From positions 64,232,001 through 64,296,000 of the forward strand of contig OZ024746.1 in assembly GCA_964016885.1 (NCBI GenBank): a stretch of 64,000 nucleotides of DNA, in the 5' to 3' direction. Shown here in pieces: positions 11,417 to 58,240 of the stretch. Below the pieces are notes generated by a model that was given only the letters and a program-made list of their open reading frames with translations, did no database searches and had not been told where the DNA came from. Source of the DNA: Eledone cirrhosa. Lineage: Eukaryota. The position numbers and the translations under genes are program-made. The first letter of the stretch is position 1. Each line of letters starts with the position of its first letter.

Positions 11417-12703
11417 CAGGGTGTGGACGATATTTGTTCACAAGATTACTGTCTAGGAAAAATTAACACAGTAGTTTTATTTTTTAAGATATATTTATCA
11501 AACTTGGGTCAGTTTGTCTTCATGACTTGTTCCTTCGATCTCACTCGATAAACCCGCCATTGGCTTTGATGATGGCCTCAAGGCGGCCTCAGAACCGGCT
11601 ACAGGCCTTCATCACTGTCCCCCGACTTAGGCCCCTAAAGGCACTTGTGATCCTGGCCTTCAGATCGTCTTTCGTATTGCAGCTAGATCTGCTGGTGTCT
11701 CGTTCCACTGCGCCTCACACAAAGAAGTCGAGGGGGTAGCAGTCAGGCGAGCTGGGAGGCCAGATGTCAGGTGAAGTGTGGTCGACAAAGTTCTCTGACA
11801 GCCAGGCTTGGGTCTTTCGGTTGGTATGGCAGGGTGCTGAGTCTTGCTGCCACACGTACGGCCTACCTGCAGCTACCTGGTCGATCCAGGGCTTTACTCC
11901 CTCACTCAGAATGCGGATGTAGCCATTGGTGTTCAGGTTGAGGCCCTCAGGGAAGAAGTGAGGTAGCATGACGTCACCTTGACTGCTGACGACACCTAAG
12001 ACCAATGTTGTCGTTGGAAACTTTGTCTGCATGACTCTGGGTACGTCTATGGATGAGACAGTGAGCCACCTTCTGGTCTTGGCAGAAGTTTTTCTTGTCG
12101 GAGAAAAACCACAGCATGTCTGGCTCCAGTGGGTGTTTCAACTTGTTGATCAGCTGCTTTGCGTGCTTCAGTCGCTTTTCTTGCATCACCTTTGACAGAA
12201 ATTGTCCTTTCCTCATCTTGTATGAAACGTAGCGAATGTCTTCATGTACCACCAGCCTAATGAGCTTTTCATCCACGCCTTTCTCCCTTGCAATGGCACG
12301 CATCGACTTGCTAGGTTCATTGTTGATGATATCCTGAACTTCAGCGACGAACTTGGGCGTTCTGAAGGCGTCAGATCGTCGATCATGTATTTCCCTCTCT
12401 GATGTTGCTTCGTAGTCGAATTCTGAATCTTCCAATTCCTTTCTGACCTTTTCCACCATTCTCCTGCTGAGGCTGAGAAAGTCTGAAATTTCCTTATTTG
12501 TCCTCCCGGCATGGATTCCAAGAAGAACTCCGTGTCTCTTCCACAAATTTGGAGGTTCAAAATTATTCATAATCAATTATTCTGAAAATAAATAATGGAA
12601 ATATAGTCACTGTTTTTATGAAGACAAGAGTGACAACGGAAGAAAAAAAAAATTGCATAAAATTAGCAGTTGAAAATTGCAAACAAATATCGTCCACACC
12701 CTG
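11417..12703 (-). mobile_element. Full-length Tc1/mariner DNA transposon, DD37D (maT) family
   Basis: 22-bp perfect TIR CAGGGTGTGGACGATATTTGTT at both ends, TA TSD (11415-16, 12704-05), 1287 bp. Confidence 0.95.
11541..12570 (-). pseudogene. Inactivated DD37D transposase
   Basis: HTH-like N-terminus, FSDKKNF, QQDSAPCH and WPPSSPDCYPLD, with 37 residues between the 2nd and 3rd D. Frameshift near 12050, premature TGA stops, C-terminus ..IIKANGGFIE*. Confidence 0.92.
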
Positions 12704-24459: not shown

Positions 24460-25700
24460 TATGTAAGATGATAAACCGGTATTGACAAACTATGAGATAT
24501 TTTGTGCAGACAACAAATTATAATTTCTTGTCTGTGATTTAAAAAAGGTTTATCAGACATTGCTATTTCAAGAGCTCTGATAGAATGAAAAATATCATTT
24601 GCTTCCATTTCCTTTATATGGACTTCCTGAATTAATAATCAACTGACATAAACTAGTAGAGATCAGATAAGTAGTTGAGGGATGTGTTGTATTTTTAATT
24701 TCACTTCTAAAGGAATTTAAATGTGAGTAGTGCCATTTTAAAAATGAATTTGATGTGGCCTCTACAGTATATAAACATTGCAGCTAGTTGCCATAGTAAC
24801 TGTACATTCTCATACACTACATTATCCTCTAGACAACATCTTTAAGATGGTAATTCCTTGGGTTTCTAGACTTATACTCAATACTATCCGATCTGCTATT
24901 TGTAGTTGTTCTAGGCTGTCATTGGTGGGTAGATTTGTTAGCAATGATTATCTTAATATTCACATTATTACTTTTAATAAGCTAGCTGCTTTTTAAAACA
25001 TGGGATAATTTTTTAACTATAACTTTGCCATTGGATTTATAAAATTTATTTAAAAATTTCATTTTCTAATAGTTACTAAAAGATAAATTAGGTATTGTGG
25101 AGTACAAAATTATGACAGTATTTTTATTTATTACCCTATGGTATCTGAGTGAAAGTGGGAAATGTTTTTGGATGATATTGAAAAATAATTTTGGTATATT
25201 AGACAATACTTGGATTGCAAAAGGAGGATTATACCAAACATTTTTTCACCTTGGTGCATGATATTCATTAATGCCATATAGATAATTATTGCCTTTCACA
25301 TAATTATACCTAGGTTAAAATTATTACCTGTTGCAAGATTTATCTCAATAGATTTCAGTATCTAGATTTTGATGCCCTCAACTCCCTCTAGAATTTCCTT
25401 GAAAGAAACCATTCCAACATGAGTTTGAATCAGAATTACTGTCTCTTCTCCTACATACTCTATGTACACGTATAGGGTCCTACATTTTTTATTGGCTCTG
25501 GAGTAAATGTCATTTTATCATAATAGTCTGACCTAACTAATACTCTGCATGCTGGTTAAATATCTCCTTAGTAGCTAAAAGTTTAGGAATTCTATTTGAA
25601 TCCTCTCTAACTATTAAGTTAATAACAGCTCTCAGGTGGTTAGACATTTTATGTACAAAATGTAGATTCTCATTAGGTTTATGATACGGCTTTATAAGTC
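24460..25700 (-). pseudogene. Decayed Penelope-like element ORF (RT thumb to GIY-YIG endonuclease C-terminus)
   Basis: Minus strand across frameshifts: KPYHKPNENLHFVHKMSNH..EIFNQHAEY (25538-25695); CCLEDNVVYE/CTVT..VYI..ATSNSFLKWHYSHLNSFRSE (~24700-24840); LEIAMSDKPFLNHRQEIIICCLHK (~24500-24575). Confidence 0.65.
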
Positions 25701-39228: not shown

Positions 39229-41301
39229 TATTAATCCTTTCATTACCAAACATTTAATGAAAATCACTACCTATGATTTGGGAAATATATAATTTGGATG
39301 GATGTAATAAAACTAACTTTCTCATTATTAAGCTGGTGTTTGGAGTATATTAAAAAAAATTCTTACATAGAATTAGATGTAAGCACTTAAAAATCAATAG
39401 TTTTGCATGTAAGATTTATGGTTAAGTTTTGGTGTCAAAAGGGTTAATTGAAATATTTCACTTTGGGAAATAAAGTAAAAACCTAATGGTAAATGTTACT
39501 AACTCACAAAGTAAAAGGAAGATAATTTCAAAACATTCAGAATTAATCTCTCAAATTCAATTTTCACTCAAGCAATATTCAGCATTCACATTTGTGATAT
39601 TTTATTACTATTGAAGTCCATTCAATACAATATGAAAAAAAAAAAAAACTGTAAAATTGCTGCTGGATTTGATATCAAACAGCAACAGAGAGATCTGACA
39701 AATGAAGATATGATATCTATTCAAATCAAGAAATTTTAAAAAGGTTTATACAGGAATTTTGAAATTTAAATCTTCACAAAAATAAGAAACATTTGAAGTG
39801 TAAATATTTGGACAGTAAGCACAAACAGAGTCATGTGGTTAAGATGGTTGCTTTGCAGTATGTTTCACTATGTGATACTTGAAAAACTATCAGCTCGGCA
39901 TTTATTAGTTTCAGATAATTGTTTCTACTTTTGGCACAAGGCCAGCAATTACCCAGTACATTACTGGTACTTTATTTTATCGACGCCGTAAGGATGAAAG
40001 GCAAAGTTGACCTCTGCTGGATTTGAACTCAGAAGATAATGTTCTGTGGTCATGCTGAAGAAAATATATGTTCTGATTAAATAAAGTACTGTTAACATAT
40101 TTAATAAATGAAATATCATAATTGTTTCCAGTTTTGTAGTTAGGAAAAAATAAGTCAGTGATATTTTAAATATTTCTGTATTGGTTTCTATGGCTGGATG
40201 CCCTTCCTAACATCAACCACATTACAGTGTGGACTGGGTGCTTTTAATCATAGCACCAAAATGACCATCTAACAGGGTGGACTGGGTTCTTTTTATTGCG
40301 GAACCAAAATGAATATCTGAGAGGGTGGACTGGCTGCTTTTTCTCTTGTCTCCAAAATGACTACCTTCAAAGCTTCGGAAATATTGATGGAAAATTAAAA
40401 ATTGGCTTGTAATCAAATAAAAACAGTATACATTTATTCTTTTCAGCTATACATAGATTGTATATTCTTTAGTATAGTAGCAAAATCTTAAAGTAGTGGC
40501 CTATGCAGAAATAACTTTAAAAATTTATAATTACAGTGTAAAGAAAGACCTAATTTTTCTATATTGAGAACAAACACTGACAGACTGTCCTAGATTTTGC
40601 AAAAAACTCTCTTGTACAAAATGGAATATTCTTGAGTTCTACACTCAATGGGTCTGCATATTATTTACCTGTGTTATAGCCCTGCTATTTGTACACATTG
40701 TTCAATGAAGCAAATTTTGAAAGTTTGATATGTAACTGAGTTACAAATCATAATGCTTATTTTGCTTGTCTTTTGACAGATTGAAAAAACTTGACAGAGT
40801 ATGGGATCCCTGTACAATAATTATAGGCCCACAATGCTCTACAACTGATGGGCCCACAGATGAATTTTACCAGAGCCCACACATAAGCAAATCCTGTCCT
40901 AATACTCAACATTTTCTGTACAATAAGATTAACGTACGAAAAATGAGTGAGAAAGGATAACTGCAGTGAAATTTGTGTATATTTTATTGAAACAAGGATC
41001 CCTAGTGATAAATACAAGAAAACAAGAAAAAGGTGTTTTGTTTGAACATTACTACAATGTGCAGTTTTTTATACGTCCTCATATTTTGGCATAAAATCCT
41101 TTCATCACAAATTTAATAGAAGAAACTAGTTCAGAGCTGAATATTTTTGTCACTCTTAAGCTGTCATTTAAAAAAAAAATATAACAATCTATAATAAACT
41201 GCACTGTAACATCCTAACACCATTGTTATATATTTAATATTTACCATCCAATTTACATTGTGGAAGCCTTCAAACAAAACACTATTTACTACATTTTACA
41301 C

Positions 41302-50615: not shown

Positions 50616-51155
50616 CATACATACATTAGATCTACCACCAAAGTTGGTCACAGTGGGATTTCAATTCAGAATGCAAAGAAACAGAACAAATACCATAAGG
50701 TACCTTGTTGAATTCTTTAACAATTCTAACAATCTGCTGATTTTCATTTGTACTTTATTTTATCACTCCTGAACAGAAGAAAGGCAAAGTTGACCTTTGT
50801 AGGATTTGAACTCAGAGTGCAAAGAGCCAGAATAAACACTGCAAGGCATTTTTTTTATTTTCAATGGCTCTAACAATTCTGCCAATTTGCTGCTTTGGAG
50901 TTCTATTTAGAGATAGTTACTCATATATAATGTAGCAATATAATCTGGTTTGTGTTGGTGAAAGAAACTGGAACAAGGACAGGGCATTTCTCAATGACAT
51001 GACACTATGACTTAGTTTTGACCTTATGACCATTTGGTAAATTGTCCAATATATATATATGTATGTTCATTAAAAACAACTTATATATATATTTATACGT
51101 CTGTATATATATATATATGTATACACACACACACACAGACACATATATATATATA

Positions 51156-51193
<38 letters not shown>

Positions 51194-51194
<1 letters not shown>

Positions 51195-54075
51195 CCGACA
51201 GTGACTATATAATTATTGCTGGCGACCTAAATGGCCACGTTGGACAACATTGTGACGGCTATGACGGAATCCACGGAGGCTATGGGTTTGGTACTAGAAA
51301 TGAGGAAGGCTCCAGAATCCTGGAATTCTGTGATGCAAATAACCTAACTATCTGTAACACTAACTTCAAAAAACGAGACAATCACTTGATTACCTACAGA
51401 TCAGGAGAACATACCAGCCAGGTAGATTATATCCTTACCAGAAGACATGACAGAGTGTCTGTTGTAAACACTAAATCCCTCCCCCATGAAGAATGCACCT
51501 CCCAACATAGACTGATAATTAGCGACTTCATAGTCAGGACGAGACATACTAGACAGCTGAAGAGGACTATCCTCAGGGGAGAAAAGTATGGAAGCTAAAG
51601 GACCCCACAGTCAGAAATAAATTTAAAAGCATATTACTTGATGCTTTCGACAGTAAGGAAGAGCAATTAGAGTCGTACAATATAGAGGAACAGTGGGAAT
51701 TCCTGAAAGCAAACCTGCTGATGGCGGCAGACGAAGTCTGTGGCTGGAGCAGGCCTGTAGGCAGGAGGAGAGTAACATGGTGGTGGAATAGTAAGGTGGA
51801 GGAGTCAATTAAGGCCAAAAAGCAAGCTTCGAAAGTATGGCGGGATGGGGGAAGTAGAGAAGACTATCAAGTGGCCAGGAGGGAAGCTAGGACACAAGTG
51901 TACTTCGCAAGAAGGGAAGCAGAGGAAAGAAAGTTCAAGCATGTTCTACAACGCGAGGACCAAAAACGTGAGGTGTTCAGGATTGCTAGGCAATGTGTCA
52001 AGGAAAACCGTGATATTGTCGGGGAGAAGTGTGTACTTAATGATAATGGCGTACTTGCCATCACTGACGCTGATAAGAAGGTAGCTTGGAAGTGTCACTA
52101 CGAAAGGCTACTAAATGAGGAGAATAAATGGGAGAAAGACAGTCTCCCCCACATCGACCCAATAGAGGGACCAGCAGTGTTAGTCGAAGGTAGTATAATA
52201 AGTAAGGCAATCAAAGATATGAAGACGGGTAAAGCGGCTGGGCCTTCGGAAATAGTTGCTGAGATGCTGAAAGCCTCTGGCACGTTGGGACACACTATGG
52301 TCACCCGGATAGTAAACCAAGTCATACAGAATGGGGTTGTTCCAAAGGACTGGCGTAACAGCATCATCATTAACTGCTACAAGAGTAAAGGAGACGCCCT
52401 AGATAGGAGTAACTATAGAGGCATTAAATTAATCGACCAGGTCATGAAGGTCACGGAAAAAGTAATAGCGCAACTAATCAGAGAGAGAATTGATCTAGAT
52501 GAAATGCAATTCGGGTTTGTGTCAGGCAAAAGTACCACAGACGCTCTTTTCATTGTACGACAACTACAGGAGAAGTACCTAGCTAAAAGTAAACCCCTAT
52601 ACTTAGCTTTTGTCGACTTGGCGAAAGCCTTCGACAGAGTCCCCATTCCATTATCTGGTGGGCTCTTAGAAAACTAGGTCTTGATGAATGGCTTATGAGA
52701 GCTATACAAGCCATGTATAAAGAAACAGTCAGCAAGGTTAGAATTAACAACGAATATAGTGAAGAGTTTAGCTTAAAAGTTGGTGTTCATCAAGGCTCTG
52801 TTCTTAGCCCCCTACTATTTATTATTGCCCTTCAGGCTATAACAGTGGAGTTCAAGACCGGCTGCTCATGGGAACTCCTATACGCAGATGATCTAATGCT
52901 CATAGCTGAATCAATGGCCGAGCTAGAGAAGAAATTCCAAACATGGAAGCACGGCCTAGAATCAAAAGACCTTAAAATTAACCTGGCTAAGACTAAAGTT
53001 CTAGTTTGTAGGAAAGAAAATAAGGCGCCGGTCCCTTCCGGGAAATGGCCATGCTTAGTGTGTAGGAAAGGCGTAGGTAGAAACTCTATTTTATGTCCCA
53101 AATGCAAAGTATGGGTGCATAAAAGATGTAGTGGGATCACAGGTAGCTAACTAAGAACATAGATTTTACATGTGGCCGGTGCTCTGGTGCAATAAGTAGC
53201 AGCAAGTGCCCACAAAATACTAGCTCTTTCAATTGCGCAGAGGGTTCTATAGAAATAGTGGACAGCTTCCGTTACCTGGGTGACAAAATCAGCAGTGGGG
53301 GAGGGTGCTCTGAAAGTACAGTAGCTAGAGTCAGAACTGGATGGAAAAAGTTCAGAGAGCTTATACCACTATTAGCCGCTAAAGGGTTCTCCCTAAAAAT
53401 GAAAGGCAGGCTGTATGATGCCTGCATACGAACAGCGATGTTACATGGCAGTGAGACATGGGCATTGTGTGCAGAGGATATACGCAGACTAGAGAGGAAC
53501 GAAGCTTGTATGCTCCGCTGGATGTTTAATAGTAATATACGTGAACGGCAAAGCATAAACGAACTAAGGGAAAAATTAGAAATAAGAGGGATCAGATGTT
53601 GTTTACTCGAGAGAAGGCTACGTTGGTATGGTCACGTGATGCGCATGAAAGACGACAGCTGTATAAAAAAGTGCAGGGCAATAAAGATAGATGGTAGCCA
53701 CGGAGTAGGCAGACCCAGAAAAACCTGGGACGACCTGATAAATTCCGACCTCACACACTTACACCTCTCCAAGACAATGTAAAGTTATGTTGGTGCCACA
53801 ACATCCAGGCCGAAACAAATGAGATCGTGTAGGTGTCACGACAAAAAAAACACAGTCCACGCTGTAATGTGGCCGTGTAGGCAACACGGTAAAAACCTCC
53901 CAGCCCCACACTGTAAATGTGGTTGGTGTTAGGAAGGGCATCCAGTCGTAGAAAACCTGCCAGACAGTCCTATGCGAGCAAGACAACCACTCTTGCCTCA
54001 AGTGGGAAAACTCCCGTCCAAACCCATGCAAGCGTGGAACATGGACGTTAAACGATGATGATGATGATGATGATG
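51194..54075 (+). mobile_element. 5'-truncated RTE-clade LINE (APE endonuclease C-terminus, RT, Cys-rich insert, 3' UTR, (GAT)n tail)
   Basis: IIAGDLNGHVG..RNEEGSRILEFC..SQVDYIL; NYRGIKL..QFGF..AFVDLAKAFDRVP; HQGSVLSPLLF..YADD; WYGHVMRM..GRPRKTW. About 3 frameshifts (~51575, ~52650, ~53150). Confidence 0.96.
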
Positions 54076-55352: not shown

Positions 55353-56078
55353 CTAAGGCGGGTAAAATTCCCGAGATCCATGGACGAGTTCTCTCCAGCG
55401 GTCTCTGTCCCTCATTATCGCTGCCATATCCTGCATCTCCAACAGACCAGTGTCTGTCCTTAGGGCATCAACATATGTTAACCTTGGTCTTCCTCTTCTA
55501 GTGTGTCCATGTAGGGGCTCCCAAAGGAGCACTGAGTGCAATGTCAACTCTGGATGTCGGTGAGCATGTCCAGCCAACCTCAGTCTCCTCTGTGTCACTT
55601 TTGATCTGACTTTTGGGATGCTCCCATACAGCTCTGAGTTTTTCATCCTCAGTGTATACTGATTAATGTTCAGAGCCATCCTCAGCATTCTCGTGTAGCA
55701 CCCATCCACCATCTGAGTGAGTCTCTTGGTCAGTGTCCAAGTCTCAGACCCATACAGCAGCACAGACTCCACTACAGCAATGAAGAGGCGGATTTTCAGG
55801 TCTCTACGAAGGTCCGACTTCCACACCGATCTCAAGCTGTGACACGCCGCCCAGGCCTTGCTCTTCCTCTCAACTACATCATCTTCCGTATTCCCAATCT
55901 TTGCTCCCAAATACAGGAAGTCCTCAACCAATTCCAGCGGCTTCCCGCCTACATTAGTGATCCCTTCTGGCTTCTCAACATTCTCTACCAGATATTTTGT
56001 TTTAGTCTCATTCATTCTCAGCGCCACACTCATCGACACAGTCTCAACCTCCCGCATCAAATCCTCTGCCTCCTTCAT
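55353..56078 (-). mobile_element. LINE (RTE-like) ORF C-terminal fragment, uninterrupted
   Basis: LRMNETKTKY..VEDFLYLG..KIRLFIAVVESVLLYGSETW..RRLRLAGH..GRPRLTYVD, with (TA)n on both sides. Confidence 0.9.
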
Positions 56079-56094
56079 ATATATATATACATAT

Positions 56095-56152
<58 letters not shown>

Positions 56153-56268
56153 TAATAAAAGGAATTCCAATTTTGTCTGATTTACTCATTTTATTTACAA
56201 TCCTTTAAAATTTATAATGGTATTAGAATGAAATAGTATGGTAGAATATTAAATGTTAAGTGTTAATT

Positions 56269-56305
56269 GAACAAGTACTGTCATGCTTTCGCAATCTTCA
56301 GGTTC
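56269..56305 (-). ncRNA. Minimal hammerhead motif with one core substitution
   Basis: Minus strand: gaac-CTGAAGA-ttgc(gaaa)gcat-GACA-gtac-TT-gttc; stem III AGTACT palindrome. Confidence 0.6.
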
Positions 56306-56515
56306 ATATTCTGTGGTGACAGTCAAGTTTGCAATTTTCAACTTATAATAAATGGCTCAACTTATAATAAAAAAGAAATAGCTTTATACAATATGTATAA
56401 ATATTTCGTATCTCCAAGGAAATACGGTTTTAGGAAGCCGTAGCTATGCAAACGCCAGGGGGGGGGGGGTCTAACGCCCTCTGGTGATAAGTTGAGCCAA
56501 CTTATGCAGCTTCAT

Positions 56516-56592
56516 ATGCAAATGAGATTAATCACCTCATTTACACAGACGAGAAAAGTATATATTCTCAGCTGTCTTCTAGTCCAGCAGTC
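56516..56592 (+). promoter_or_regulatory. Candidate internal promoter (octamer ATGCAAAT, TATA, initiator-like CAGTC)
   Basis: ATGCAAAT at 56516-56523, TATATA at 56559, and the A of cAgtc at 56589, 30 nt after the TATA start. Confidence 0.4.
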
Positions 56593-56605
56593 GCAAGCAG
56601 TGGGA

Positions 56606-56658
56606 GGGACGGTCCTGACGAAGGCCAGTTAAGCCTGAAATGCATAGAAAGTTGTCCC
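56606..56658 (+). ncRNA. Minimal type-I hammerhead ribozyme
   Basis: gggacggtc-CTGACGA-aggc(cagttaa)gcct-GAAA-tgca-TA-ga(aag)ttgtccc. Core intact, stem III ATGCAT palindrome, predicted cleavage after 56646. Confidence 0.85.
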
Positions 56659-56853
56659 CCTTGTTTCTGCTGGACATCACCAGAGGGCGTTAGCCCCCCC
56701 CCCCCCCCCCCCCGTGTTTGCATAGCTACGGCTTCCTAAAACCGTATTTCCTTGGAGATACGAAATATTTATACATATTTATATACATATATATATATAT
56801 ACATATATAAATATATACACATATAAATATATACACATATATATTTATATACA

Positions 56854-57450: not shown

Positions 57451-57699
57451 ACAGTGATGGACTAGCCAGATTGTCAGCTTACCTGATGGCAAGTGGGCCC
57501 CTCGGGGACCTATGGTAATATTTTAGGGGCAATGCAAAACCTTTTCTTTCTCAGAAAATATCATAAGTCCTAGAGAATGAATAATAAACTACAGAATAAT
57601 AAACTACAGTTGACCAGTTGATCATGTATTGCTCATACAGGTCTATATTTTGGTTTTGTTTCTATTGCAGGATGGTCTTCCCAACACCATCTATATTAC

Positions 57700-57910
57700 A
57701 GTGTGGACTGCTTGCTTTTTATTGTGGAACCAAATCAATCATCTAACAGGGTGAATTGGGTGCTTTTTGTCATGTCACCAACACAACCACCTTATAGGGA
57801 AGACTGGGTGCTTTTTCTGTGTCACAAAGACGACTGCTTGATAGGCATGATAGACTGGGTGCTTTGTTGTTGTATCATCAGATTACCAGACAGGGTGGAC
57901 TTTGTCCTTT
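57700..57910 (+). repeat. Degenerate ~42-bp repeats of the RTE-UTR module (also 40225-40370)
   Basis: Recurring (g)tggactgggtgctttt motif. Confidence 0.6.
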
Positions 57911-58044
57911 TTTTTAATATATATATAATAAATAACCACTAGTTATCGCTATACATGGCTGAATATAAATCAGGCCAATCGGTCACTGTATATTTCAGAA
58001 AATATATATTTTCACTAGCTCTGACAGTCAGCAGGTAAGCAGTA

Positions 58045-58093
58045 AACTGCACTGATGAAGGGTAATCCCTCAGAAACATTAGTGTCTACAGTT
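58045..58093 (+). ncRNA. Minimal hammerhead motif
   Basis: aactgca-CTGATGA-aggg(taat)ccct-ca-GAAA-cattagtg-TC-tacagtt. GUC cleavage triplet; 2 extra nt before GAAA. Confidence 0.65.
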
Positions 58094-58240
58094 CTGTTTG
58101 CATGCCAACACAAGAGCAAGAATGAGGGGCTCATTCTACTGATATGGCTTATAAAAGAGGCTGTTTGCATAATTGCAAACAAATCAAATATTATTATTAA
58201 TATTCGAAAAACTCAGATTACATTTATATATATAAATATA

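Follow-up and report, generated by a model that had tools for sequence, protein, structure and literature searches.

Metazoan non-LTR retrozymes are described by Cervera and de la Pena (2020; PMC7229834) as sources of circular RNAs that are abundant in animal tissues, with RtcB as the host ligase for their circularisation. Two lines of thought exist on how such animal elements are transcribed. A 2020 review (PMC7761336) proposes promoter-less read-through and says that retrozymes seem to lack promoters; newt satellite 2 points to a snRNA-type promoter, since an internal promoter of that type was reported for this repeat (Coats, Zhang and Epstein 1994, as cited in PMC2220036) and its transcription has been assigned to RNA polymerase II (Pol II; as cited in PMC6765202). 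At snRNA genes the PSE recruits SNAPc (PMC1761439). Word searches of PMC7229834 and of Li et al. 2026 (10.64898/2026.07.22.740005) returned no description of an internal promoter, the word 'promoter' being absent from the latter preprint, and the literature searched, which left most subscription papers outside its reach, yielded no report of snRNA-type promoters in invertebrate retrozymes. The promoter idea has a precedent in the newt work of 1994; what is added here is a multi-family pattern in an invertebrate.

The element at issue occupies 57925..58230 of the 64,000-nt stretch of Eledone cirrhosa DNA that was analysed (the window; positions 64,232,001 to 64,296,000 of contig OZ024746.1). 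It is a 5'-truncated, mutated, single partial copy of a hammerhead (HHR) repeat family with a unit of ~450 nt, here called family 2; the locus itself is an ordinary dead repeat, and the valuable result is the promoter pattern across multiple families. An earlier note on this DNA had recognised two hammerheads, and both are real: their cores, at 58052 in the family-2 copy and at 56615 in a copy of a further family, family 1, are the only type I HHR cores that a permissive scan returned from the window, both strands included. An Rfam scan of the window gave no HHR match at the gathering cut-off, and ARAGORN found no tRNA gene in it. A run presumed to be RNA gave four short AT-rich contigs, none of them in either HHR, a result that tells neither way. 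The copy opens with a 5' inversion, an inverted copy of the family-2 3' tail lying on the minus strand at 57927..57968 (86% over 43 nt to monomer positions 281-323). The inversion joint falls within an octamer and has broken it, leaving at 57963..57970 a remnant with two mismatches to ATGCAAAT. The features that follow are all on the plus strand: a PSE-like element that matches host U1/U2/U5 promoters (57977..57990; 12.4 bits, p per site 3e-5), AGAAAA plus a TATA-like box comparable to those of host U2 promoters (57997..58010), and a predicted transcription start at 58033, placed at TATA+30 by the geometry of 13 host Pol II snRNA promoters. The 5' arm of an extended stem I (58029..58051), which contains a splice-donor-like word, leads into the type I core with stems II and III (58052..58086). 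The predicted cut follows the GUC that ends at 58086, so a 5'-OH product would start at 58087, in agreement with the cleavage position 58086/58087 given earlier. The 3' arm of stem I (58087..58106) has one mismatch in the window copy, common to 4 of 30 family-2 copies, and the remaining family-2 body (58107..58227) stops at the first of two tail sites and enters a short (TA)n tract. The extended stem I fold has a z score of -4.1 in the window copy and -5.1 in another family-2 copy (L017). Family-2 stem II reads GGGT-AATC-ACCC, that is 4 bp with an A.A mismatch at its base, and the window copy has two private changes in it; with one weakened hammerhead and a broken octamer this copy is probably inert. 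Directly upstream, at 57690-57915, lies a 48-nt minisatellite-like repeat family that recurs at 1195-1605 and 40224-40360. Further decayed mobile elements of the window, at 25081-25698 (minus), 51074-53780 (plus), 55360-56204 (minus) and 11720-12576 (minus), comprise one fragment of a Penelope-like element (PLE), two LINE RT fragments and a Tc1/mariner-like transposase fragment, labels that were given partly by eye.

The second hammerhead, in what had been called the 56.5-kb element, belongs to family 1, an HHR family with units of ~324 nt. The direct copy runs from 56487 to 56783 on the plus strand, with its octamer at 56516-56523, TCAC at 56532, TATA at 56559 and a predicted start at 56589; its hammerhead (56615-56646, plus) has a palindromic helix III and a predicted cut after AUA at 56646. 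Upstream lies an inverted family-1 tail, again a 5' inversion (56378..56488, minus), then additional short family-1 pieces read by eye at 56344-56377, and then, joined directly to the family-1 insertion, the inverted 3' pseudo-LTR of a PLE (56151..56343, minus), which has a mutated HHR of its own. This pseudo-LTR is 91.5% identical to locus L259, which has a GIY-YIG frame (Pfam E 2.9e-7) and RT-like frames upstream. The stretch 56151-56783 can be read as a whole as a chimera flanked by two (TA)n tracts, consisting of the inverted PLE pseudo-LTR, the inverted family-1 tail and the direct family-1 copy. A MITE, suggested by the 80-nt inverted arms that flank the element, was considered and rejected: the inversions have no constant length and consist of sequence copied from the tail of the unit itself.

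Both families are dispersed over the 3.0-Gb assembly, with per-family counts taken from 30 loci each. First-look candidates numbered 2690 for family 2 (40 of them scored) and 2020 for family 1, and exact 35-nt family-2 cores were found 159 times, with none in the control. Mean pairwise identity is 91% in family 2 (30 best loci) and 97% in family 1; the HHR core is intact in 21/30 and 28/30 copies, and stems I-III are present. Many copies are preceded by the tail of their own family, so the units are to be read as circularly permuted monomers of ~450 and 324 nt. More than one monomer is present, as partial head-to-tail tandems, at 8 of the 30 family-2 and 15 of the 30 family-1 loci, with a head-to-tail spacing of 441 nt in family-2 locus L008. 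Inverted 5' ends occur at 10/30 family-2 and 19/30 family-1 loci, and (TA)n follows the 3' end at 19/30 in either family. The 3' ends form two clusters, ~40 nt from each other, that hold 17+8 of the 30 family-1 loci and 14+8 of the 30 family-2 loci and bracket a tail common to the two families (p 0.001). Folded as circles, all five monomers examined gave z scores between -3.4 and -11 (30 shuffles each), the family-2 monomer -8.7. In family 2 none of 42 loci has two intact cores, the first core being broken in both head-to-tail pairs, and the first 100 of the 159 exact-core matches contain no head-to-tail arrangement. The family thus looks extinct and is filed as decayed rather than active; it lacks the two consecutive units with complete HHRs that Li et al. 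2026 take to define an active retrozyme, an arrangement that is present in families 4, 7 and 8.

Families 1 and 2 fit non-LTR retrozymes, likely moved by PLEs, to judge from the structure of their copies, and the window element is not itself an autonomous PLE. Direct joints to inverted PLE pieces were seen at 2 of 30 family-1 loci and involve two different PLE families: at L047 the retrozyme is joined to an RT/GIY-YIG fragment (the GIY-YIG match just above the cut-off, the RT match below it), and the second joint is the window's own 56.5-kb element with the pseudo-LTR of the second PLE. Such chimeras amount to sequence evidence for the proposed PLE helper. From the PLE side, one locus in 30 adjoins family 1, namely the seed locus. 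Among the 30 family-2 loci there is no direct PLE joint and no PLE frame joined to a copy, and the monomers gave no alignment with the pseudo-LTR of the one PLE family compared. A further candidate joint, 'PLE_C', was dropped as a self-match. At L157:1264-1620 (C19 near 7531500) a U6atac-like retrocopy has an inverted family-2 piece attached to its 5' end and (CA)n/(TA)n behind it, and this joint suggests that one RT inserted both RNAs.

What the two window elements share upstream of their hammerheads had been described as a common TATA-initiator leader. TATATATT indeed starts at 56559 and 58003, with the A 30 nt later at 56589 and 58033, and a 50-nt alignment of the leaders beats 1000 of 1000 dinucleotide shuffles (p 0.001, for a stretch chosen post hoc); but beyond the TATA the likeness weakens to p 0.037, and for another pair of family-1 and family-2 copies that part is not significant (p 0.50). 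Part of the shared lettering is private to the window: the AGTCAGCAG form occurs in 1/30 family-2 copies against AGTTGGCA in 24, and the shared family-1 form AAGCAGT in 4/30 against AAGCGGT in 24; both changes are also present in DNA contigs. The upstream TCAC exists in both elements, but at unequal distances of 27 and 20 nt before the TATA, and the equivalent sites 16 nt after the octamer read TCAC at 56532 and TCGG at 57979. GGTAAGCAG and TGTTTGCAT (the latter also given as CTGTTTGCATGCC), both noted earlier, turn out to be the paired arms of the extended HHR stem I, and the 'extra CA' singled out for a cleavage assay is private to the window copy (1/30 family-2 copies). That account had neither the octamer nor the 5' inversions, and did not recognise the elements as repeats.

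The leaders were compared with host profiles built from 13 distinct U1/U2/U5 upstream regions and 4 U6/U6atac regions, near-duplicates and retroposed- or rearranged-looking copies being left out. In the host Pol II set YCAGT stands at -55 to -57 in 13/13 regions and a TATA-like box near -30 in most; in the Pol III set all four U6/U6atac promoters have the octamer at -76 to -78 and TATA at -30. A proximal octamer occurs in none of the 13 Pol II promoters. Set against the U1/U2/U5 PSE+TATA profile, the window family-2 copy reaches p 2e-4; in family 2 the profile score ranks 1 of 450 positions, and an exact octamer lies 16 nt before the PSE core in 20/30 copies. Family 1 has the octamer in 29/30 copies and TCAC 16 nt after it in 30/30, but reaches only p 0.05 on the Pol II profile. 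Across families the Pol II profile is clear in 2 and 8, where a host-type PSE sits about 55-60 nt ahead of the predicted start, borderline in 1, 6 and 7 (p 0.05-0.19), and gave no match in families 4 (p 0.59) and 5 (p 0.16). A purine occupies TATA+30 in 7 of 8 families, and the predicted start near TATA+30 with its ~54-nt leader fits host U1/U2/U5 geometry. A U6-type profile drawn from four promoters proved too weak to classify families. At the other end of the unit, a AAAAACTCAGA word in family 2 was tried as a snRNA 3' box and rejected, as it is not the top site; no family has a consistent 3' box; against this, a 3'-box-like match in a single family-2 stretch of the L030 type scores 11 bits. 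In the host U1, U2 and U5 genes (L088-L152) a AATTAAAT word is often found near -90, and their 3' box reads AAAAWCAGA; many of the host snRNA genes stand in tandem arrays, and in some U6 copies of a C19 array (L037, L038, L040-L043) other sequence replaces the octamer region directly upstream of the TATA.

The generality of this architecture was approached with patterns and with an unselected census. The pattern octamer-TATA-CUGANGA has 8656 matches against 33 when reversed, and its matches revealed family 4, with 466-469-nt arrays and a real HHR. A second pattern, designed to avoid the known families, has 682 matches against 67, both pairs of counts reflecting amplification and not independent events; the first 30 of its loci, sorted by eye, hold 7 copies of family 5, 8 of family 6, 9 of families 1, 2 and 4, one further single HHR, one PLE-type HHR and 4 loci without an HHR. 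Families 4-6 do not count as independent cases, since the search pattern behind them required an octamer and the families may have a common origin. HHR stems are unalignable between families, and if the families do share ancestry the leader motifs have outlasted the ribozyme stems. The census scanned 100 evenly spaced 10-kb stretches (1.0 Mb) de novo and returned 63 HHR matches, with none in the reversed control. Family 7 is the most widespread (19 matches, in 12 of the 100 stretches) and has the octamer in 9; family 8 contributes 24 matches from two arrays, lacks the octamer and has a U5-like PSE+TATA (p 0.007); families 2 and 4 have one match each, both with the octamer. The octamer thus accompanies 11 matches, in families 2, 4 and 7, at an octamer-window background of 1.6%, and none of the 18 other census HHRs; these are taken as PLE-type, although only one type is tied to a reading frame. 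Two census scores of p 0.03 fall within (TA)n tracts and were set aside as artefacts. All four unselected tandem families carry a snRNA-like motif 70-100 nt before the core: the octamer in three of them (family 2 also the PSE) and a PSE match alone in one. A search with RF00163 returned, at 30/30 loci, a third HHR family (L108-L137) that passes Rfam Hammerhead_1 and is without the leader; the octamer is seen in 0/30 family-3 copies, and in 1/29 copies of one PLE family. Family 3 shows inversions and (TA)n ends and is probably a PLE pseudo-LTR. Young retrozyme arrays (L294, L333, L334, L335, L194-L223) belong to families 4, 7 and 8, with units of 466-469, 430-493 and 310 nt, and at L248:1500-1760 a single HHR with octamer and TATA 48 nt apart possibly represents a further family.

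We consider it likely that the window element is a decayed ~450-nt retrozyme-type copy whose leader matches host snRNA-gene promoters and works, or worked, as an internal promoter. The earlier conception of a conserved promoter-then-ribozyme order survives in a broader form than was claimed, as a promoter-like leader at a fixed distance before the HHR, but the leader is of snRNA type and not a generic TATA-initiator. In tandem source copies the leader would recruit SNAPc, and the polymerase, most likely Pol II, would initiate near TATA+30, ~54 nt ahead of the first hammerhead, and continue across the following unit. Two cleavages would free a monomer that carries the promoter of that following unit; once closed into a circle by a host ligase, the monomer would be copied into (TA)n sites by a Penelope-like RT/GIY-YIG protein, a step expected to yield permuted, more-than-monomer copies with 5' inversions. 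Removal of the capped leader, earlier proposed as the purpose of the ribozyme, is then likely a by-product, because two cuts in the circularly permuted tandem units of these families would set a monomer free. A solo TATA-initiator gene whose ribozyme serves to strip off the capped leader, perhaps combined with a 5' splice site, strikes us as highly improbable. The window copy does have a single HHR, the A at TATA+30 is real, and CAGGTAAG occurs in 19/30 family-2 copies; but the element is a single member of a large set of dispersed copies of tandem, permuted units, stem I pairs up the donor-like word, which families 1 and 8 lack, and this very copy bears private damage in its octamer and in stems I and II.

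As to the polymerase, Pol II is favoured because the PSE-TATA spacing is that of U1/U2/U5, T4-T8 runs lie in every monomer, a consistent 3' box is lacking and the newt offers a precedent; against it stand the U6-type proximal octamer, the U6 spacing of family 5 and the failure of families 4 and 5 to match the profile. The same retrozyme might instead use a U6-type Pol III promoter, most transcripts ending at internal T-runs and monomers arising only by read-through, in which case there would be no m7G cap to remove. We regard this as improbable. In its favour, the octamer lies 73 nt before the predicted start, much as in U6/U6atac (-76 to -78) and at odds with the 13 Pol II promoters that lack it, family 5 copies the U6 spacing and TATA context, and in vertebrates it is Pol III that a PSE combined with a TATA box selects (PMC1761439). 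Yet a TATA-like box is also found at host U1/U2/U5 genes, and octamer and TATA lie 40-45 nt apart in families 1, 2, 4, 6 and 7 against 46-48 at host U6, with U6-type spacing restricted to family 5 (47 nt) and the L248 element (48 nt); moreover, it is the Pol II PSE that families 2 and 8 match and U6 promoters do not, and every monomer contains T-runs (T4 in family 2, T6 in family 1, T5-T8 in the others). Still less probable is that the leader motifs persist for the sake of RNA structure or of recognition by the RT, with transcription only by read-through from flanking promoters. In favour of that reading, the octamer falls within a predicted hairpin in families 1, 4 and 7, with a strand further downstream as its partner; the Pol II profile is not matched by three families, and the review PMC7761336 holds that retrozymes seem promoter-less. 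The octamer letters, however, are constant and the partner strand differs among families, the same octamer stands upstream of U6 outside the transcribed part, family 8 has a PSE match with neither octamer nor hairpin, and the spacing to TATA and to HHR is conserved. The internal snRNA-type promoter, if true, would explain constitutive expression and the survival of the promoter through retrotransposition, and the defined 90-nt leader in several young, near-identical arrays makes retrozyme transcription directly testable. More speculatively, and with a little less than even confidence, animal retrozymes may be self-driven snRNA-gene mimics, many unalignable families of one genome keeping a host-matched octamer/PSE/TATA promoter in the circle, with U1/U2-type as well as U6-type designs in use, and a PLE RT dimer may co-insert two different RNAs (a retrozyme and a PLE mRNA or U6atac) back to back at a single site.

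Set beside the known systems, the families share traits with several. EN+ PLE clades (10.1101/2021.04.23.441226; PMC11167929) have the same 5' inversions, partial tandems, (TA)n targets and HHRs, and a 30-40 bp tail from two RT start sites; the retrozyme families, in contrast, are without a reading frame, and the host's PLE HHRs are without the octamer leader. The HHR-bearing SINE-like repeats of Schistosoma (PMC6765202) likewise place a promoter before the HHR, with the promoter at the 3' end of the cleaved monomer, so that tandem copies are needed; they are reported as Pol III transcripts, however, and the window is without a tRNA gene. Newt satellite 2, as described in citing papers, is the system that the element would resemble in its working, an HHR tandem repeat with a reported internal snRNA-type promoter; our case differs in its invertebrate host, its many unalignable families, its TATA-like box resembling that of host snRNA genes and its U6-like proximal octamer. 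The element itself counts as a decayed member of the non-LTR retrozymes of metazoa (PMC7229834; Li et al. 2026, 10.64898/2026.07.22.740005), which have a type I HHR in short, non-coding tandem units, a helix III that is palindromic or a stem II with a mismatch at its base, solo derivatives, a self-paired circular fold and coexisting PLEs; what sets the present families apart from them is that at least seven carry the octamer and/or the PSE together with TATA, and that chimeric joints with PLE pieces are seen.
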